Below are positions 4,095-59,244 of a stretch of 64,000 nt of DNA, piece by piece. A program made the position numbers and the translations under genes. The DNA is from Escherichia coli (GTDB lineage Bacteria > Pseudomonadota > Gammaproteobacteria > Enterobacterales > Enterobacteriaceae): the NCBI RefSeq assembly GCF_003018235.1, contig NZ_CP027437.1. One strand, given 5' to 3'. The stretch's first letter is position 1; each line of letters opens with the position of its first letter. The notes beneath the pieces are model-generated. The model did no database searches and had not been told where the DNA came from. It saw only the letters and a list, made by a program, of their open reading frames with translations.

Positions 4095-4821
4095 CGGGCG
4101 CTCCTTGCCAGAATGCCTGGATTAACGCAGTGAGGCAGCCACAGACAATGCCTGCCAGAATGGCGACGGGAATAGAAAATAGCGTTACGCCTGCAAGGGC
4201 ACCAACTAACGCTGCGGTAACGCAAAGAGATTGTTTGCGCTGGAAAGAGGCGAGCAGGAAACTCATAAAGAGTGCCGGAAGCATAAAACCTAATGCTGCT
4301 TCAACGGCGGGATATCCTTGCAGCAAGCCGCTGCCGGAGAATGCCCCTATTACCGTACCAAATACCCACGATGACCATGAACTGAAGGCAATGCCGATCA
4401 TCCAGTTCTCGCTCCAGCGGCGATTATTGCGTACCAGTTTTGCGGTTGCGGCGGCAAAAACCTCATCCGTCAGGCCAAATGCCCACAGGGCGGTTTTCGA
4501 TTTTTGCAGACGCTGAATAATACGGCTACGCAGTGACGGGCCATACAAAACATGGCGAACATCCATTGCCATGACGGTCAGTGCAGCAACCCACAAACTA
4601 CTCCCGGCTGCCAGCATCGCGGTAATGACGAACTGGCTCGCGCCTGCATAAATGATGCAGGAGAAAAAGACGCTTTCGAGAGGAGAGAATCCCAGACGGG
4701 TCGCATTCAGACCGAACGCAAAGGCCACCGGAATATAACTAATAACAATCGGTAAACTGTCTTTGCATCCTTCCATGAAGGTCGCCGAACCAGGAGCAGG
4801 CTGTGGAGTAGGGCTTTCCAT
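4084..4821 (-). CDS. ygaZ: Branched-chain amino acid (L-valine) exporter large subunit YgaZ (AzlC family)
   Basis: 245-aa membrane ORF; synteny. Confidence 0.88.
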
Positions 4822-50215: not shown

Positions 50216-50723
50216 TTTTCTTCCGTGCGAGCATCAAGACATCCGGGTTGACCTTTACACCGCTACGCGATAAGGCATCCAGGTTTACGGCAAATCTGAC
50301 GTCATTATTGTGGATGATCAGACAAAAGGCGCTACCAATAATGCACTCGGTATTTTGTTCGGCAATTAATAATAACGCCTTTGACGGATATTGTTCGGTT
50401 AATTCCATCTGGAATGTCGGTGACTCGTTGCCAAAATAAAAACCATTGCAGCCTGAAATCATCGCCTCTTGTTGAGTGTGAATGATGACAGGCAGATAAG
50501 GCAAAGATGTCGCGGCATTCTCTTGTAGGGCGGTACTAAAACGTGAAGATGAAAAGATACATAACTTTGGTGGCCCTGATAGCGCAGGCCAGCGGGTGTA
50601 ACTGACAATACCGGAAACCATCATACGCACGTTTTTCGCAACGTCAGAAGGCTCCTGAGCGAGTATTGGTGCTCCCGTCAGCAGGAGAATCAGAAGTAAG
50701 AACAGTCGGTGAGAAAAACGCAT
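50205..50723 (-). CDS. yfiR: Periplasmic repressor of DgcN, YfiR
   Basis: 172-aa secreted ORF overlapping dgcN start. Confidence 0.9.
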
Positions 50724-50872
50724 TCAGGGATCCTCACCATCTTCGCTCGAAATGCATCGATATTTTTTCAGAATGCTCATTAAAATATCATTCTTTCATG
50801 CGGTCGTCATCAATGTGAGAAATAAAACACAATGAGTAAAATCTCATGCTTAATTTATTTGCGGGGGTTTAA

Positions 50873-51256
50873 TTAATTTAATCGTATTGTGCTGGCATTT
50901 TCATCAGCCCCTTTTTGCCATACTTCATGCAGTTGACTGGCATTTTCAACATTGTTGCAGCTGGCAGGAAAGCTTTTACCGGAAAGGCCCCGGGCATAAG
51001 TAAAATCGGTCTGGCAAGTTTTCTTTTGTCCTTCGGCATATCCTTTAAGGTATAGACCGCGATCCGCCTGTGAATCGCTAAATGCATCGTCATCTTTTAT
51101 GGTGCTGCCCGATATCGCATCTTCCATACCGACATCATACCAGTCGGTGCTGGTCAAGGTTGGCGCGTGAGTATAAGGATCAATCTGACATCCGCTAACC
51201 AGTAAAGCCAACAAGGGGGCGATAAACTTTTTCATCATTTCTTTCTCCTTTTTCAA
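50873..51256 (-). CDS. yfiL: Lipoprotein YfiL (start probably a few codons inside the ORF)
   Basis: 127-aa ORF with lipobox LVSGC. Confidence 0.85.
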   Translation of the reverse strand: MKKEKEMMKKFIAPLLALLVSGCQIDPYTHAPTLTSTDWYDVGMEDAISGSTIKDDDAFSDSQADRGLYLKGYAEGQKKTCQTDFTYARGLSGKSFPASCNNVENASQLHEVWQKGADENASTIRLN

Positions 51257-51283
51257 AGCATAGCTGATTGTTTTTAAAGGAGG

Positions 51284-51352
51284 TGTAAATTTATTTGTAC
51301 GAAATAAACATCAAAAGCGCGAGTAAATTGTTCATGTAAAGAAAAATGTACG
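51284..51352 (+). promoter_or_regulatory. aroF promoter region with TyrR-box-like sites (TGTAAA-N6-TGTACG twice)
   Basis: Two near-consensus TyrR boxes read upstream of aroF; aroF is a known TyrR target. Confidence 0.6.
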
Positions 51353-51446
51353 AAATATGGATTGAAAACTTTACTTTATGTGTTATCGTTACGTCATCCT
51401 CGCTGAGGATCAACTATCGCAAACGAGCATAAACAGGATCGCCATC

Positions 51447-52517
51447 ATGCAAAAAGACGCGCTGAATAACGTACATATTACCGACGAACAGGTTTTAATG
51501 ACTCCGGAACAACTGAAGGCCGCTTTTCCATTGAGCCTGCAACAAGAAGCCCAGATTGCTGACTCGCGTAAAACCATTTCAGATATTATCGCCGGGCGCG
51601 ATCCTCGTCTGTTGGTAGTATGTGGTCCTTGTTCCATTCATGATCCGGAAACTGCTCTGGAATATGCTCGTCGATTTAAAGCCCTTGCCGCAGAGGTCAG
51701 CGATAGCCTCTATCTGGTAATGCGCGTCTATTTTGAAAAACCCCGTACCACTGTCGGCTGGAAAGGGTTAATTAACGATCCCCATATGGATGGCTCTTTT
51801 GATGTAGAAGCCGGGCTGCAGATCGCGCGTAAATTGCTGCTTGAGCTGGTGAATATGGGACTGCCACTGGCGACGGAAGCGTTAGATCCGAATAGCCCGC
51901 AATACCTGGGCGATCTGTTTAGCTGGTCAGCCATTGGTGCTCGTACAACGGAATCGCAAACTCACCGTGAAATGGCCTCCGGGCTTTCCATGCCGGTTGG
52001 TTTTAAAAACGGCACCGACGGCAGTCTGGCAACAGCAATTAACGCTATGCGCGCCGCCGCCCAGCCGCACCGTTTTGTTGGCATTAACCAGGCAGGGCAG
52101 GTGGCGTTGCTACAAACTCAGGGGAATCCGGATGGGCATGTGATCCTGCGCGGTGGTAAAGCGCCGAACTATAGCCCTGCGGATGTTGCGCAATGTGAAA
52201 AAGAGATGGAACAGGCGGGACTGCGCCCGTCTCTGATGGTAGATTGCAGCCACGGTAATTCCAATAAAGATTATCGCCGTCAGCCTGCGGTGGCAGAATC
52301 CGTGGTTGCTCAAATCAAAGATGGCAATCGCTCAATTATTGGTCTGATGATCGAAAGTAATATCCACGAGGGCAATCAGTCTTCCGAGCAACCGCGCAGT
52401 GAAATGAAATACGGTGTATCCGTAACCGATGCCTGCATTAGTTGGGAAATGACCGATGCCTTGCTGCGTGAAATTCATCAGGATCTGAACGGGCAGCTGA
52501 CGGCTCGCGTGGCTTAA
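51447..52517 (+). CDS. aroF: DAHP synthase, Tyr-sensitive (AroF)
   Basis: ORF 51378..52517 trimmed to [15 protein letters not shown] (356 aa). Confidence 0.94.
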
Positions 52518-52527
52518 GAGGTTTATT

Positions 52528-53649
52528 ATGGTTGCTGAATTGACCGCATTACGCGATCAAATTGATGAAGTCGATAAAGCGCTGCTGAATTTATTAGCGA
52601 AGCGTCTGGAACTGGTTGCTGAAGTGGGAGAGGTGAAAAGCCGCTTTGGACTGCCTATTTATGTTCCGGAGCGAGAGGCATCTATGCTGGCCTCGCGTCG
52701 TGCAGAGGCGGAAGCTCTGGGTGTACCGCCAGATCTGATTGAGGATGTTTTGCGTCGGGTGATGCGTGAATCTTACTCCAGTGAAAACGACAAAGGATTT
52801 AAAACGCTTTGTCCGTCACTGCGTCCGGTGGTTATCGTCGGTGGTGGCGGTCAGATGGGACGTCTGTTCGAGAAGATGCTGGCACTCTCGGGTTATCAGG
52901 TGCGGATTCTGGAGCAACATGACTGGGATCGAGCGGCTGATATTGTTGCCGATGCCGGAATGGTGATTGTTAGTGTGCCCATCCACGTTACTGAACAAGT
53001 TATTGGCAAATTACCGCCTTTACCGAAAGATTGTATTCTGGTTGATCTGGCATCGGTGAAAAATGGACCATTACAGGCCATGCTGGCGGCGCATGATGGT
53101 CCGGTGCTGGGGTTACACCCGATGTTCGGCCCGGACAGCGGTAGCCTGGCAAAGCAAGTTGTGGTCTGGTGTGATGGACGTAAGCCGGAAGCATACCAAT
53201 GGTTTCTGGAGCAAATTCAGGTCTGGGGCGCTCGGCTGCATCGTATTAGCGCCGTCGAGCACGATCAGAATATGGCGTTTATTCAGGCTCTGCGCCACTT
53301 TGCTACTTTTGCTTATGGGCTGCACCTGGCAGAAGAAAATGTTCAGCTTGAGCAACTTCTGGCACTTTCTTCGCCGATTTACCGCCTTGAGCTGGCGATG
53401 GTCGGGCGACTGTTTGCTCAGGATCCGCAGCTTTATGCCGACATCATTATGTCGTCAGAGCGTAATCTGGCGTTGATCAAACGTTATTATAAGCGTTTCG
53501 GCGAGGCGATTGAGTTGCTGGAGCAGGGCGATAAGCAGGCGTTTATTGACAGTTTCCGCAAGGTGGAGCACTGGTTCGGCGATTACGCACAGCGTTTTCA
53601 GAGTGAAAGCCGCGTGTTATTGCGTCAGGCGAATGACAGTCGCCAGTAA
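52528..53649 (+). CDS. tyrA: Chorismate mutase / prephenate dehydrogenase TyrA
   Basis: 373-aa bifunctional T-protein ORF. Confidence 0.95.
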
Positions 53650-53654
53650 TAATC

Positions 53655-53690
53655 CAGTGCCGGGTGGCGTGTTTCACCCGGCACGATTTC
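53655..53690. terminator. Bidirectional terminator between convergent tyrA and pheA (gtgccgggtg...cacccggcac)
   Basis: 10-bp inverted repeat read in sequence. Confidence 0.7.
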
Positions 53691-53691
53691 A

Positions 53692-54852
53692 TTATGCCGG
53701 ATCGACTGGTACCACATTCTCGCTTGGGTAACAGCCCAGGACTTTCATCGAGCGAGTGATTTCACCTAGCTCTTTCAACGCCTGTTGCATTTCCGCTGAT
53801 TCCAGATTGGCCTGAATATCCAGATAAAACATCTCTTCCCACGGGTTTCCGTGAATCGGGCGTGATTCCAGACGGGTCATAATCAGATTGTGGTTGCGCA
53901 GTACCAGCAACGCTTCAACCAGCGCACCAGCTTGTTGGCCGGTCGCCATTAACAACGTCGTTTTCGCCGGAACCTGGTCAGAAACGTTAATGGCTTTACG
54001 TGCCAACACCACAAATCGGGTGAAGTTTTGTCGCTGATTCGCTTCAATACGCTCCAGTACCTGCAAACCGTACAAAGTGCCGCCAGCTTCGCTTCCCAAC
54101 GCAGCAATATGCGGTGATTTTGCCTGTGCAACCTTTTCCATTGCCGCAGACGTACTTTCGGTATATTCAATCTTCCAGTGTGGATAACGATTAAGGAATT
54201 TGCTGCATTGCTGGAATGGCTGCGGATGGCTGTAGACCGTATTAATGGTGGATAAATCAGTAGTGCCGGAGACCAACAAACAATGGTCGATAGTTAACGT
54301 CATCTCGCCAACAATCGACAAACTGGTATGTTGCAGCAGATCGTAAACGTCGTTTATGGCACCGGAGCTGGTATTTTCAATCGGTACGACGGCATAGTCG
54401 GCCTGGCCGGTTTCCACCTGATTAAAAATATCGGCAAATTTGGCGCAGCCACTTTCAATGAATTGCTCAAAGTGACGGGCAGCGTACTGACGAGCGGCAA
54501 GATGTGAATAGGAGCCTTTGGGGCCGAGAAAAGCAATGCGGGCAGAGTGTGGATTAATTTTATTGAGATGTTGCTGGAGCAAAGCCTGCTGAGTTAATAC
54601 GGAATCTTCAATGATGAGCTGGAACAGGCGAGTAATGTAATGGGCGTCCAGATGGTGCGCTTTACCGAGCGTAATTAATCTTTCCAGTAAATCGCGTTCA
54701 CGATCAATATCACGTACCGGGCGATGCGAGAGCAGTTTGGCTTTTCCCACCTCGACGGCCAGTTCGCGCCGCTCTGCGAGTAATGCTAATAATTTTTCAT
54801 CCAGCGCGCTGATTTTCTCTCGCAGCGCCAGTAACGGGTTTTCCGATGTCAT
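53692..54852 (-). CDS. pheA: Chorismate mutase / prephenate dehydratase PheA
   Basis: 386-aa bifunctional P-protein ORF. Confidence 0.95.
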
Positions 54853-54869
54853 AGTGTTGCCTTTTTGTT

Positions 54870-54905
54870 ATCAATAAAAAAGGCCCCCCGATTTGGGAGG
54901 CCTTA
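54870..54905 (-). terminator. pheA attenuator terminator hairpin (ggcctcccaaatcggggggcc + U-run on minus strand)
   Basis: GC hairpin plus T-run between pheL and pheA. Confidence 0.75.
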
Positions 54906-54950
54906 TTGTTCGTCTTCGCATTCTGTTTCACACGACGAAACGCCTCCCAT

Positions 54951-54998
54951 TCAGGGGAAGGTAAAAAAGAATGCGAAGAAAAACGGTGTGTGTTTCAT
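54951..54998 (-). CDS. pheL: pheA leader peptide PheL (15 aa, 7 Phe codons): MKHTPFFFAFFFTFP
   Basis: Small ORF read by hand on minus strand; placed relative to overlapping track ORF 54865..55080. Confidence 0.9.
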   Translation of the reverse strand: MKHTPFFFAFFFTFP

Positions 54999-55004
54999 GT
55001 TTGT

Positions 55005-55050
55005 TTCCTTAAGTGACTTCAGTACAGTACCCGTACTGTTTTCACGCTGT
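55005..55050 (-). promoter_or_regulatory. pheL-pheA promoter (-35 TTGACA ... -10 region)
   Basis: ttgacagcgtgaaaacagtacgggtactgtactgaagtcac read on minus strand upstream of pheL. Confidence 0.6.
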
Positions 55051-55163
55051 CAACAAAAAACGCGCCCGAAGGTGCTTTAATGAGGAGTGCCGCTTCTTTA
55101 TGTCTGTGAATTATCAACAACTTACGGGGAAACATAACCGCAAGAAGCGACAAGAAATTACAA

Positions 55164-56153
55164 CTATATGGACAGATTATGGACGCTTTCAGCCAGTGGA
55201 TTAAAGCTTATAGCATCCTGTAAAAAATCCGGTGCAAAATGCGCATATGTCATTGTTTGCTGGATAGTTGAATGTCCAAGAATCCGTTGAAGTGTTACTA
55301 TATTTCCTCCATTCATCATAAAGTGTGTTGCAAACGTATGCCGCATAACATGAGTTGCCTGTCCTTTGGGCAGATCTGGTTTTACTTCCTTTAGTGCTCG
55401 TCGAAAGTTTGTGTAATTAACATTAAACAATGCACCAGATTGTTTTATCTTGATGAGCTTTATAACTTCTTCGGATATAGGTATGGCGCGGGGTTTATTG
55501 GTTTTTGTCTGATTAAACATAACTCTGTTTCCCACAATATTTTCTCCCCGTAGTTTTGTTGCCTCTCCCCACCTTGCTCCTGTCGAAAGACACAGAATCG
55601 CTATTCGTTTGTTATCTCCAGTAAGATGATTGAGCAAGCGATCAATCTCTTCGTTTGATAAAAACGACATATCTGATGGTACAATCCTCAACTTCCTCAG
55701 ACCATGTAGCGGATTTGCATGGTGGAATTCTTCAGCATTAATCAGCACTGAAAACATGGCTGAAAGTACGCAGAGATCCCTGTTTACCGTGTTGGGTGTC
55801 AGTCCTGCACTGAGTTTGTTTGCACGATAACTCAGAAGGAACTTTCTGGTTACACCGTTGGCTCTGGGATCTCCCATTTCTCTGATCACTTTATTCAGCC
55901 TTTGCAGGTATGTCTCACCATAAGGCTGATTTTGCCCGTCGAGCATCCACCACATTTCGGCAAGTTCGGAAAGATGGCGTTTGTCTGCGGGTTTTTCCAG
56001 CCATGGTTTGTTATGCATGTTCTGAAGAACATATTTTTCATAATCCTGCGCTTTCGACTTCAGGGTGAAAATTTTTCGAATCCGCTTCCCTTCCGCACCC
56101 TGAGGTCTGACATCAACCTGATAACGTCCGTCTTTGAGCTGCTTAATCGACAT
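55164..56153 (-). CDS. int: Tyrosine recombinase, phage P2 Int family
   Basis: ORF 55164..56168; N-terminus MSIKQLKDGRYQVDVRP and C-terminal catalytic region ...HVMRHTFATHFMMNGGNIVTLQRILGHSTIQQTMTYAHF recognised as P2-like Int. Confidence 0.9.
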   Translation of the reverse strand: MSIKQLKDGRYQVDVRPQGAEGKRIRKIFTLKSKAQDYEKYVLQNMHNKPWLEKPADKRHLSELAEMWWMLDGQNQPYGETYLQRLNKVIREMGDPRANGVTRKFLLSYRANKLSAGLTPNTVNRDLCVLSAMFSVLINAEEFHHANPLHGLRKLRIVPSDMSFLSNEEIDRLLNHLTGDNKRIAILCLSTGARWGEATKLRGENIVGNRVMFNQTKTNKPRAIPISEEVIKLIKIKQSGALFNVNYTNFRRALKEVKPDLPKGQATHVMRHTFATHFMMNGGNIVTLQRILGHSTIQQTMTYAHFAPDFLQDAISFNPLAESVHNLSI

Positions 56154-56243
56154 GATTAGCACCTCCAACGGTATTTTGTTGCTTTAATACATTTCTGTAC
56201 CTTGTAATGTATTCAATATGCAGGCCAAACCAGCATCCTGGTG

Positions 56244-56567
56244 TTATTGGTGTGATTTTGAGTTTGTTGTAGTTGAATCCTGAGCGGCCTCCGATTCTCC
56301 AGAGCCATCAAGAGAGAGAGCCGGGGCGATCTGCCCGGCCTGAGGGAAGGTTTTGCCGTGCAGGAGCCACATTGTGTATTTTTCGAACAGTGAGCACTGT
56401 AATACACGGAGGGCGATATCTGCCCGGGCAGGTTGATGTCCTGTTTCATAACTCTTAACAGAACCAAGAGCTATACCTGTTATCTCGCTAAACTTTTGCT
56501 GGGTTATTTTTTCAGCACGTCTGATCGCTCGTAGTTTTTGAGCAAAATCCATTGACAAGGTATTCAT
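56244..56567 (-). CDS. Immunity repressor, P2 C-like (HTH)
   Basis: ORF 56244..56651 trimmed to MNTLSMDF with AAGGA RBS; C-terminal YTMWLLHGKTFPQAGQIAPAL resembles P2 C. Confidence 0.75.
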   Translation of the reverse strand: MNTLSMDFAQKLRAIRRAEKITQQKFSEITGIALGSVKSYETGHQPARADIALRVLQCSLFEKYTMWLLHGKTFPQAGQIAPALSLDGSGESEAAQDSTTTNSKSHQ

Positions 56568-56668
56568 ATAACGACTATCCTTCTTTTGGTTGTTGATTAA
56601 CGACGTTTGCAATAGCTGACTATAGTCGACAGTAGCCAGCAAACGCACCAACGATGGAGGATAACAAA

Positions 56669-57127
56669 ATGCAGGAAACTATTGCAGAGGGGGGGATATT
56701 CAACGCTGGTGGGGATGACACGCAGTTACAGGAAAAGGAAGTCAGAAATAAATTATCACTGAGACTTGATGGACCTGTAGCGGATTTAGTTTTTCTGGAT
56801 AAAGGAGCAGCATACGTTGGGCTGACCAGGAAAGCGCTTGCAACAGCTTTACGTAGAGGCGAAATGCCTGGACATAAGAAAAGAAAAAATCCTGAAGATG
56901 AAACATCGCGTGGAGTGTGGATTTTTAACGTCAAGGCATGGAATGAACTTGCTGATATTTTGCCTGAAATTGAGCCACCAGAATGGCATCACTGGAAAGA
57001 TTACTGGTTATACAACCGAAACACTCGGAAATTTCAAAAGATTGATAAACAAGATTGTACACAGATTAATGGTAAACGTGTTTACAGGCCGCGTCAGAGC
57101 AGACTGGAAAAAGCACGTCAGTCATGA
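56669..57127 (+). CDS. Cox-like excisionase/transcriptional regulator (divergent from repressor)
   Basis: ORF 56654..57127; internal ATG with GGAGGA RBS; HTH-like segment AYVGLTRKALATALRRGEMP; position equivalent to P2 cox. Confidence 0.55.
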   Translation: MQETIAEGGIFNAGGDDTQLQEKEVRNKLSLRLDGPVADLVFLDKGAAYVGLTRKALATALRRGEMPGHKKRKNPEDETSRGVWIFNVKAWNELADILPEIEPPEWHHWKDYWLYNRNTRKFQKIDKQDCTQINGKRVYRPRQSRLEKARQS

Positions 57128-57290
57128 AACGGTATTTATTAGTAAGCAACAAGAAAGTGAATTAAACTCATCGGCAATAACTCGTTATTAAATTGTCATA
57201 CTGTCTGAAACTATTTCCTTCTATTACTGATGTGTGAGGCACGGAAAGGGAATTCCGTTTTTTTAGTGGTGCGATGAGAAAATAACAGAG

Positions 57291-57485
57291 GTGTCAGAAA
57301 TGGAAAAAGAAAAACTGAGACATTTTCGTAAAGAATTAAAAGCTTCTCAGCGTGTAATGACTTTGGCTATTAAGCGATTAGAGGAAGGACGTTATAAGTC
57401 TGCAGTGGAACTCATGCGTGCAGAAGCAGCGGATATATTTAAACTGGCAGATGAATTAAGTGATGTAACAGAACAACAATCCTGA
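57291..57485 (+). CDS. Hypothetical small coiled-coil protein (64 aa)
   Basis: ORF with AGAGG RBS; charged helical composition. Confidence 0.45.
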   Translation: MSEMEKEKLRHFRKELKASQRVMTLAIKRLEEGRYKSAVELMRAEAADIFKLADELSDVTEQQS

Positions 57486-58281
57486 ACACAGGAAAGTTAT
57501 GGGCTTGTGTGATTCAGAAAGTGTGAGGTTACGTGCAAAATGGCCAGACATGTAAAAAAGAACTTGAATGCAGTGTCGGCATGGTGGTATTTTTCATCTG
57601 CTGCCACAGTGCTGGCAGTCGGGAATACCACCCCGTATGTGTCAACGGCGACATCAGACGCCGCAAGCGTCTTTTTTGTTGTCGTAACCTTATACGCCAT
57701 GAAGCTCCATTTTATGGTGCGGTGTTATCCATTAAGAGCCGTTGCAAGCGCCTCTACCGGAAGGGGCTGGATAACATCCACCACCATGTCAATGGTAGCT
57801 CAGGCGGGGCCGACTTCGGTCGGGCCGGTTTCCGTTGGCACCGGTAGTGGTATCCCCGTCTGGGCTATCGCCAGTGAGCATACCACCTCCTGCGATAGCA
57901 GTATGTTATGTCAACGGAGGCTGCCTGAATGGCTACAATCCCAACCCAAAAGCGCCCAAAATCCGCGCTCCCCCAGCTCAGCAGTGACTGTCGTCGCCGG
58001 ATACACCGTGTGCAGATGGTTACGCTCCATTATTACATTCAGTGTCTCGCTGATAATCCGTGTTCAGTTGATTTTTGTTTTCCGTACTTATTGTCTTACA
58101 TCCACGATGATATTAAGGCTATAGATAATGAGTTAATTTCTCTTGGCCTGTTTGAACAGGCGATGGGAAAGAAAAAACGACGATAGTTTTCATCGTTATT
58201 AATTAACGTTGTCAGGAAGTATTAAACACACCGCTCACGCGGCGGGAATCTTACATCTTAAATATCTGACGAGGTGGAAAC

Positions 58282-58437
58282 ATGAAGCTGTTTTCATTAC
58301 GTAAAAATAAAAAAACGGAAAAAAAGAAACGCACTTATCCGGCAAATAATAACGTCCGTCTGTTACGTTATTACCAGAAATTACAGGAATTAAGTTGTGA
58401 ACCGGATAAAAAGTTCAGCCTGGATGTGTGGATGTAA
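58282..58437 (+). CDS. Hypothetical Lys-rich small protein (51 aa), below ORF-track cutoff
   Basis: ATG preceded by GAGGTGG; stop immediately before exonuclease gene start. Confidence 0.4.
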   Translation: MKLFSLRKNKKTEKKKRTYPANNNVRLLRYYQKLQELSCEPDKKFSLDVWM

Positions 58438-58448
58438 TGGGGGAATAA

Positions 58449-59024
58449 ATGAACGATCTGATGATTGATACTGAAACAACAGGAACATCCCATCATTCAG
58501 GGATTATTTCCTTTGCCGCAGCATTTTTTAATCCAGATACCGGAGATAAAGGTGACCACATTTATCTTCGCCTGGACTGGGTGAGTGCGACACGTAATGG
58601 CGCAGTGATTGATCCGGAGACATTCTGTTTCTGGTTAGAGCAATCGACAGAAGTAAGAATGGAAGCCGTCAGGAAAGACGAAAGTATTTCTGAACGTGAC
58701 GCCACATATGCGCTGATTAATTTTATTGAGCAGCGTGCTGATATCAGACGGGTGCGTGTCTGGGCGAAGTCACCCACGTTTGACTGCTCACTTCTTCGTG
58801 ACATGTGTGATCGGAGTATTGGGTCAAATACCAGCGTAGAAATGTTGTGGCCGTTCTGGAATGAGAGAGATGTCAGGACTGTTGAAGGGCTTGCCGCGCA
58901 TCTTGGCATTCCGTTGCCTTACTCCAGAAAGGAAGTCACTCATCATGCTCTTAATGACGTTATGGGGCAGATAAAAAATGTGGCTACCGTATTTGCAGCA
59001 CTGCGTGGCGTGATGGAGGTGTGA
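58449..59024 (+). CDS. DEDDh-family 3'-5' exonuclease (DnaQ-like fold)
   Basis: Exo I motif IDTETTG, Exo II-like FDCSLL, Exo III HHALNDV in the 191-aa translation. Confidence 0.7.
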   Translation: MNDLMIDTETTGTSHHSGIISFAAAFFNPDTGDKGDHIYLRLDWVSATRNGAVIDPETFCFWLEQSTEVRMEAVRKDESISERDATYALINFIEQRADIRRVRVWAKSPTFDCSLLRDMCDRSIGSNTSVEMLWPFWNERDVRTVEGLAAHLGIPLPYSRKEVTHHALNDVMGQIKNVATVFAALRGVMEV

Positions 59025-59025
59025 T

Positions 59026-59244
59026 GTGAATAAAGCACAACGTAATGCTGCAGCGGCAGCGAATCGTCACAGGGTCTCGCCGGAACAGGTGCTCATCTGG
59101 TGTGAGCAACTGAAACGCATTGTGGACACAGCAAACCAGAATACGCGGCACAACGAAAAGAGCAGGGCGCTTGAGCCGATTATTGCGTGGATTGAGCAGC
59201 AGAAGAAACAGGCAATGGAAGAAATCAGAAAACGGGGTGAATGA
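59026..59244 (+). CDS. Hypothetical protein (72 aa), translationally coupled
   Basis: GTG start one nt after exonuclease stop; stop overlaps next start (ATGA). Confidence 0.45.
   Translation: MNKAQRNAAAAANRHRVSPEQVLIWCEQLKRIVDTANQNTRHNEKSRALEPIIAWIEQQKKQAMEEIRKRGE

Follow-up and report, generated by a model that had tools for sequence, protein, structure and literature searches.

The raiA terminator of Escherichia coli is a recurrent attachment site of diverged P2-family integrases

Results

The junction between int and pheL

The window analysed here is a stretch of 64,000 nucleotides from the Escherichia coli contig NZ_CP027437.1. It carries pheA and its leader next to an integrase gene, a repressor gene and a cox-family gene. 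The features in and around the junction are as follows.

53692–54852, minus strand: pheA, an open reading frame in the window.
54874–54999, minus strand: Phe leader (pheL coding sequence and attenuator), host DNA (Rfam RF01859 Phe_leader, 132.2 bits).
54951–54998, minus strand: pheL coding sequence MKHTPFFFAFFFTFP, read from the sequence; 97% identity with K-12, the Phe leader being left unchanged by the insertion.
55053–55048, minus strand: TTGACA hexamer, host DNA, identical to positions 4545–4550 of the K-12 reference locus (L001).
55055–55066, minus strand: host half of the hybrid site, GGCGC (55066–55062), G and T6 (55060–55055); right stem arm and U-tract of the raiA/RaiZ terminator.
55065–55072, minus strand: crossover (overlap) region CCTTCGGG, the sole stretch in which strand exchange is possible.
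55073–55080, minus strand: phage half of the core, arm TTAAAGCA, from alignment to K-12 and the junctions of relatives.
55088–55152, strand not assigned: 11-nt inverted repeat TGCCGCTTCTT / AAGAAGCGACA, 91% complementary, with 43 nt between the arms; flanks the IHF-like site.
55112–55124, plus strand: TATCAACAACTTA, predicted IHF site in the spacer that separates the core from the arm repeats; agrees with the consensus WATCAANNNNTTR at every position.
55167–55185, minus strand: arm-repeat pair CGTCCATA and TGTCCATA, predicted P2-type Int arm-binding sites by consensus match.
55164–56153, minus strand: int, P2-family heterobivalent tyrosine integrase of 329 amino acids (structure 5c6k, Pfam, PHROG 1).
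56244–56567, minus strand: P2 C-type immunity repressor, helix-turn-helix, 107 amino acids, upstream of int (PHROG 147, E=1e-27; annotation of relatives).
56669–57127, plus strand: cox-family gene, divergent from C (PHROG 23196, E=8e-56; Pfam Phage_Cox / Cox family DNA-binding protein in relatives).

Homology to K-12 covers window positions 50598–55072 at 97.1% identity and ends inside the loop of a minus-strand hairpin. The hairpin reads GCACC (55075–55071), TTCG (55070–55067) and GGCGC (55066–55062), followed by G (55061) and six T (55060–55055). Set side by side, the window reads ..CATTAAA GCACC TTCG GGCGC GTTTTTTGTTGACA and K-12 reads ..GAGTAG-N26-GCGCC TTCG GGCGC GTTTTTTGTTGACA. The pheL promoter and the terminator-like hairpin named in the original prediction are thus present, every described element lying where it had been placed. 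The prediction had also located the core of an integrase-proximal att junction between the promoter and int; the core falls at the low end of that stretch, at approximately 55054–55080, and 55081–55166 is phage arm DNA reaching to the int stop codon (55164–55166). The crossover lies 12–19 bp upstream of the TTGACA hexamer at 55053–55048, which we take to be the −35 box of the pheL-pheA promoter.

In K-12 MG1655 the gene order is raiA, RaiZ, pheL and pheA, and 103 bp separate the stop codon of raiA from the start of pheL, as the assumed adjacency of the two genes demands. RaiZ is an sRNA that spans the 3' end of raiA and whose own 3' end, in the K-12 annotation, is the terminator U-tract (coordinates were taken from the RefSeq annotation; Rfam gave no RaiZ match in K-12 at the gathering threshold). 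Window positions 55055–55066 are identical to positions 4532–4543 of the reference locus, 4543 being the annotated 3' end of RaiZ. The insertion point is therefore 30–37 nt past the raiA stop codon, within the raiA/RaiZ intrinsic terminator, and leaves the raiA coding sequence untouched. Alignment to element-free K-12, the check proposed with the prediction, identifies attB as this terminator hairpin. The junctions of the relatives described below show the direct repeat to be imperfect, with two base differences between the phage and host cores. The prediction had offered raiA itself or the raiA-pheL intergenic region as the integration site: the latter holds, in the terminator loop, and the former does not.

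The phage base A at 55073, in place of the host G, leaves an A.C mismatch in the hybrid hairpin. A simple terminator scan did not call this hairpin, which is explained by the mismatch and is no argument against the observation. ARAGORN found no tRNA or tmRNA in 54000–57000.

Reciprocal junctions in related prophages

Five of 5426 complete E. coli genomes carry this int beside pheL, and three of them (CFIAFB20140388, SCU-111 and ES5) were inspected. Each contains a prophage of ~45–49 kb between pheL and an intact raiA (WP_000178456.1). Relative to the window, their early regions are 85.5–99.5% identical and their junctions 95.7–99.6% identical. The two ends of these prophages are reciprocal: GCGCCTTCGGGTGC is found towards raiA and GCACCTTCGGGCGC towards int. 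At the junction beside raiA, all three genomes have CCAAC GCGCC TTCG GGTGC and then phage DNA; at the one beside int, phage DNA passes into TTAAA GCACC TTCG GGCGC GTTTTTT. The host DNA on the raiA side comprises the full coding sequence, the stop codon and 29 nt of 3' UTR up to the crossover.

These relatives bear directly on the fate of raiA. The original prediction held that the 3' end of the integrase gene had replaced raiA. The absence stands: BLAST found no match to K-12 raiA anywhere in the 64-kb window, and no intact copy, the finding named as a refutation, lies between pheL and int. The replacement does not stand, as raiA is intact 45–49 kb away in the three relatives. It is displaced, not replaced or lost, and in the present genome the other end of the element is beyond base 64000. 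The far junction and the raiA of this genome lie in that same DNA, and reciprocity is seen in the relatives only.

Two symmetric positions distinguish the phage core from the host core, A versus G on the left and T versus C on the right, and each junction has one phage-type and one host-type base. This confines the exchange to CCTTCGGG, the 8 bp at 55065–55072. In the window these are flanked, on the minus strand, by C at 55064 (host type) and A at 55073 (phage type). An overlap of 6–8 bp is typical of tyrosine recombinases, with which a width of 8 bp is compatible. The common core GCRCCTTCGGGYGCGTT is present in the K-12 attB and in both junctions of the three relatives, the window itself showing the int-side junction only.

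Given the reciprocal junctions, we infer that the attP core would read TTAAAGCACC-TTCG-GGTGC(G/T)TTAA. Its differences from attB are mutually compensatory, placing an A-T pair where the host has G-C, and in the ES5 sub-lineage the core is a perfect 10-bp inverted repeat around TTCG. The same junction pattern occurs in two sub-lineages whose early regions are 85.5% identical (~96% at the junction). The compensatory pair, together with the persistence of the pattern across sub-lineages, argues against later mutation of the junctions.

No free phage or circular attP was found in INPHARED, IMG/VR or JGI metagenomes. A set of 50,697 phage records was searched by megablast, first with int and its adjoining arm and then with both sibling int types described below; IMG/VR and the JGI metagenomes were searched with exact patterns. 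Relatives of Int in IMG/VR are prophage predictions trimmed a few bases past the int stop, and hence contain no att DNA. An intact attP would be expected to contain the junction TTAAAGCACCTTCGGGTGC, CATTAAAGCACCTTCGGGTGCGTTAAAA, and excision would be expected to restore attB as GCGCCTTCGGGCGC.

Integrase, arm sites and switch genes

The protein encoded by int matches the P2 integrase structure 5c6k (E=4e-99) and two Pfam domains, Int_N (PF24624, E=2.6e-29) and Phage_integrase (PF00589, E=2.7e-18). The catalytic motifs of tyrosine recombinases (Arg / His-x-x-Arg / His / Tyr) are present, and the motifs of the catalytic region shared with P2 (LSTGARWGEA, H..RH.FATHF, LGH and YAHF) are conserved. 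By tblastn, Int is 55–56% identical to P2-group integrases over 98% of the protein and 72% identical to the 705R2/P88-like Int. A divergent switch of C repressor and cox adjoins int; the cox product is presumed to be the excision directionality factor and switch regulator.

The arm repeats CGTCCATA and TGTCCATA are spaced 11 bp apart within the last int codons, abutting the stop codon, and are the sole such pair in the 64-kb window. They match the published P2-type arm-site consensus tgTGGaCa (PMC3448106). All three complete relatives have a further pair, TGTCCATAAAACGTCCAT, in the arm next to raiA, ~50 bp from the core. This gives at least two direct repeats to either side of the core, those by int seen in the window and those of the far arm in the relatives. 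Of 24 related loci from other Enterobacterales, 22 have an equivalent pair after int.

The candidate IHF site TATCAACAACTTA is at most suggestive: the consensus matches six times in the 64-kb window against 3.4 expected, a weak enrichment, and one of the six falls in the 86-bp spacer.

A recurrent attachment site

With a K-12 query centred on the terminator, attB proved uninterrupted in 5273 of the 5425 complete E. coli genomes, and in the other 152 (2.8%) it was split. Junction-specific queries assigned 123 of the split sites to Int WP_000974887.1, 22 to Int WP_000023380.1 and five to the window type. The five occurrences of this int might suggest a rarely used site, a reading ruled out by the other P2-like prophages at the same core. 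Many matches that had seemed element-free, aligning 8–9 bp beyond the K-12 breakpoint, are such prophages.

The exact Int is present in 156 collection blocks; in all eight of the contexts listed it adjoins pheL-pheA-tyrA-aroF with an identical junction, and the same is true of all five complete genomes. Three further integrase lineages share the int-side junction GCACCTTCGGGCGC beside pheL, two in E. coli and one in another host. In this last, fourth lineage the Int is 65% identical and precedes a Phe leader and pheA-tyrA-aroF; the host DNA has 47% GC and a pheA 71% identical to that of E. coli. These values, with the WGS accession series, suggest Yersinia as the host. The raiA terminator is thus a recurrent attachment site of diverged P2-family integrases and is not peculiar to this element. 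In the literature searched we found no description of an attachment site between raiA and pheL.

The two sibling E. coli integrases share only 57–58% identity with each other and with the window Int. Their prophages use the same attB, have the same int-side junction (..AACGCACCTTCGGGCGCGTTTTTTGTTGACA, that is, ..AAC GCACC TTCG GGCGC GTTTTTTGTTGACA) and leave raiA intact at the far end. WP_000974887.1 prophages carry TM2, Hok/Gef and Ogr genes at the raiA-proximal end, as does the window type. Both siblings are ordinary P2-like myoviruses, of ~37 kb (WP_000974887.1) and ~29 kb (WP_000023380.1). They also differ from the window type in the right arm of attP. In the siblings this arm equals the host sequence (GGCGCGTTTT..), so that integration restores the raiA terminator together with its U-tract, whereas the window-type attP has GGTGCGTTAAAA, which gives a G.U pair and removes the U-tract.

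Comparison with known integration systems

A close parallel is the Int/attP/Cox/IHF system of P2 (Peduoviridae). Its integrase is homologous over the core-binding and catalytic domains, the direct arm repeats are of the same type, and the gene order of ogr, att, int, C and divergent cox is the same. The target is intergenic and not a tRNA gene, in keeping with the tendency of P2-type integrases stated in PMC3448106. The core sequence and attB differ, P2 and W-phi occupying other K-12 coordinates, and the genome body of the window-phage lineage is lambdoid (Q antiterminator, lambda-like head and tail genes), not P2-like. The relatives carry Q, lysis, terminase and portal genes, a fusion of ClpP-like prohead protease and capsid, tape measure, J and Lom; their only P2-like modules are int-C-cox, a replication endonuclease and ogr. 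Assignment of the whole phage to the Peduoviridae was rejected: the P2 late genes (N, O, P/M, tail sheath and tube) are absent from the complete relatives, which have lambdoid genes instead. The test rests on the relatives; the late region of the present genome lies outside the window.

Among phage records, the closest Int (72% identical) belongs to vB_EcoM-705R2 and P88-like phages, with which an E. albertii prophage can be grouped. These share the phage core arm TTAAAGCR (TTAAAGCG) and the arm-repeat pair, and integrate upstream of dmsA in the serS terminator, likewise a GC-rich intrinsic terminator (GCGCC-TGCG-GGCGC plus T-run) ~25–40 nt past the stop codon. The core is AAAAAGCGCC-TGCG-GGCGC-T7, and the overlap CCTGCGGG differs from CCTTCGGG in one loop base; the locus, serS-dmsA, is a different one.

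Tyrosine integrases that likewise have arm sites and a dyad-symmetric core include the P2-like enzymes of the 186 type and others directed to tRNA and tmRNA genes. The arm repeat of the 186 type is tgccGCCActt (PMC3448106); the repeats in the window are of the P2 type instead. Membership of the tRNA/tmRNA-targeting type was likewise rejected, ARAGORN having found neither gene at the junction, where the target is the terminator of a protein gene and an sRNA.

Alternative origins of the junction

One could suppose that the phage had entered the raiA coding sequence at its 3' end, leaving raiA truncated or with an end supplied by the phage. Some phages do enter the 3' ends of genes and rebuild them, and raiA is missing from the window. 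Against this, K-12 homology on the pheL side reaches to within 30 nt downstream of the raiA stop, and relatives with the identical junction keep the full raiA, its stop codon, 29 nt of 3' UTR and the standard product WP_000178456.1. Nor is there a crossover in the coding sequence with the frame restored by the phage, the crossover lying 30–37 nt past the stop and the RaiA of the lysogens being unchanged. The probability of integration in the coding sequence is close to negligible. For the relatives it is already refuted; for the present genome, the main reading predicts an intact raiA stop codon followed by TCCTTTATATTGAGTGTATCGCCAACGCGCC.

It is also very improbable that the junction is the scar of a deletion or rearrangement. 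The prophage would then have entered another locus, a subsequent deletion would have taken out raiA and brought int up against the pheL promoter, and no attL would exist here. Only one end of the element is visible in the window, and IS elements and pseudogenes occur inside the prophage of the relatives, as such a history would allow. However, the junction is identical to the base in every genome carrying this Int, four integrase lineages break at one position with GCACC always on the phage side, and the spacing of the arm sites and the candidate IHF site is canonical. A deletion that arose independently would not yield such a recurrent junction with a common breakpoint and canonical spacing. 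More substantial is the possibility, which we regard as real but doubtful, that the junction is a true attL belonging to a decayed and immobile remnant, its att anatomy a fossil. The RefSeq records of relatives annotate J and RecE as pseudogenes, one lineage has IS200 and IS66 insertions, and the phage records searched contain no sequenced free phage with this int. Set against these points, none of int, C and cox is truncated, Int retains the motifs that surround the catalytic residues in P2 Int, and the 156 blocks with the exact Int represent varied E. coli backgrounds. This spread suggests either recent mobility or a widely inherited insertion.

Discussion

We conclude that 55054–55185 is very probably the integrase-proximal att junction (attL in the lambda convention) of a prophage with a P2-family tyrosine integrase. 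The conclusion draws on the anatomy of the junction, the reciprocal junctions of the relatives, the family of the integrase and the constancy of the site. It is an ordinary P2-family att junction at a recurrent and apparently undescribed attB.

On this reading, attB is the raiA/RaiZ intrinsic terminator hairpin, GCGCC-TTCG-GGCGC plus U-tract, directly upstream of the pheL-pheA promoter, and a look-alike core carried by the phage recombined with it within the common 8 bp CCTTCGGG. At the int-side junction the left stem arm, GCACC, comes from the phage, and the right stem arm with the U-tract from the host; the raiA-side junction is the reciprocal. The 86 bp that lead from the core to the stop codon of int are the phage arm, with a predicted IHF-consensus bend site, and the adjoining P2-type arm repeats would serve the N-terminal domain of the integrase, a layout as expected of an intasome. 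The neighbouring C/cox switch would provide the excision factor. In this scheme, binding by IHF and Int, the exact positions of cleavage and the present capacity for excision are what we infer. The relatives carry pseudogenes (tail protein J, RecE), and the element may on that account no longer excise or form particles.

For annotation, it is useful that the prophage boundary in the window is fixed to the base. The other boundary is predicted ~45 kb further on, as raiA followed by CCAACGCGCCTTCGGGTGCGTTAAAA. The junction there would take the form CCAACGCGCCTTCGGGTGC and then phage DNA, that is, raiA followed by ..GTATCGCCAACGCGCCTTCGGGTGCGTTAAAATTAGC.. and the TGTCCATAAAACGTCCAT arm pair.

A terminator divided between two junctions may have consequences for the transcripts that end in it. 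In RNA folding, the K-12 hairpin has an energy of −14.4 kcal/mol and the int-side hybrid, with its A.C mismatch and the U-tract kept, −7.2 kcal/mol. The raiA-side hybrid of the window-type phage forms a stem with one G.U pair at −12.7 kcal/mol, and its U-tract is replaced by GUUAAAAUUAGC. A simple scan found no terminator directly after raiA on that strand in the window-type raiA-side junction; a phage hairpin followed by UUUCUUU lies ~130 nt beyond the junction. RaiZ is made from the raiA 3' end and is bound by ProQ mainly via 3' stem-loops including the terminator (PMC5391140), and for this reason RaiZ may be altered in a window-type lysogen.

It is conceivable, if unlikely, that attP mimics the raiA/RaiZ terminator, with a compensatory A-U for G-C and no U-tract, and that integration, by swapping the halves, alters the 3' ends of both RaiZ and int. 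Were this so, the raiA mRNA and the ProQ-dependent RaiZ would keep a slightly weaker stem and lose the 3' U-tail, and raiA/RaiZ transcription would read through ~130 nt into the phage arm, as far as the phage-borne hairpin. The changed 3' end of RaiZ would affect its ProQ binding or stability, and possibly the control of hupA. The C-int transcript would gain the host U-tract behind a mismatched stem, so that the 3' end of int would differ between phage and prophage; this would amount to a sib-like, state-dependent control, with possible read-through into pheL-pheA. As the siblings rebuild the terminator exactly, the effect would be a lineage-specific lysogenic conversion at the level of RNA.

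The possible effect on RaiZ, which would concern the junction outside the window, is the only part of wider biological interest. At least three E. coli integrase lineages, which share only 57–58% identity, use the site, as does a fourth lineage from another genus. Sister integrases at near-identical terminators constitute a compact natural system for the study of target choice, or target switching, in the P2 family.

Modular composition of the prophage

Comparison of window positions 55076-64000 with three complete E. coli relatives carrying the same prophage (L002, L005 and L006) shows the element to be a chimera of P2-like and lambdoid modules. The P2-like modules are int-C-cox and a replication endonuclease resembling P2 A; the lambdoid middle comprises a Q antiterminator, tRNAs, a lysis cassette, lambda-like head and tail genes, J and Lom; and ogr/Delta, Hok/Gef and TM2 genes occupy the far end. 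L136, a true P2-like prophage occupying this site, has the TM2, Hok and Ogr end in common with the element.

Two features of the window prophage were located as follows.

57788-57875, + strand: C4 antisense RNA (Rfam RF01695, 74 bits)
59241-61283, + strand: 680-aa ORF carrying an Exonuc_VIII domain of the RecE family

C4, an immunity RNA of the P1/P7 type, sits within a P2-type early region. At the equivalent place the SCU-111 relative has two copies of C4 together with isrK and a c4-a1b1 target element, adjoining an ash-family gene (L004 6085-6531). The RecE-family ORF is open in the window, whereas annotation of the RefSeq relatives lists its counterpart as an incomplete pseudogene.

Integration locus and integrase relatives

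The att arm, the phage DNA between the crossover core and the int stop codon, contains an inverted repeat.

55088-55098 and 55142-55152: 11-nt inverted repeat, TGCCGCTTCTT / AAGAAGCGACA, 91% complementary

The repeat flanks the IHF-like site on both sides, and could be a protein-binding dyad or else a structural element of the int 3' UTR.

The host segment retained beside the prophage differs from K-12 by two SNPs. That at 54987 (pheL codon 4) gives the product MKHTPFFF.. rather than MKHIPFFF.., a common variant (WP_001386991.1). The other, at 55022, is a G/A polymorphism a short way upstream of the leader (TACTGAAG versus TACTAAAG) that is also polymorphic among lysogens.

When PDB was searched with the window integrase (55164-56153), its catalytic domain (residues 245-322) was matched by the 401-residue chain 9i5v_14 (E=1.3e-8), labelled 'Ribosome-associated translation inhibitor RaiA'. 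The label is probably a naming quirk of the PDB entry, and its agreement with the raiA insertion site is likely a coincidence without meaning.

In 705R2/P88-like phages and in E. albertii, the sister integrase (72% identity) has as its target the terminator of serS, which lies upstream of dmsA (L003 2560-2620, L007 and L040 276-330); a single base sets this core apart from that of raiA, the loop being TGCG at serS and TTCG at raiA. Among more distant P2-family int loci, many have a GC hairpin and T-run approximately 100-150 bp after int, and others are located at the 5' end of a putative pflA.
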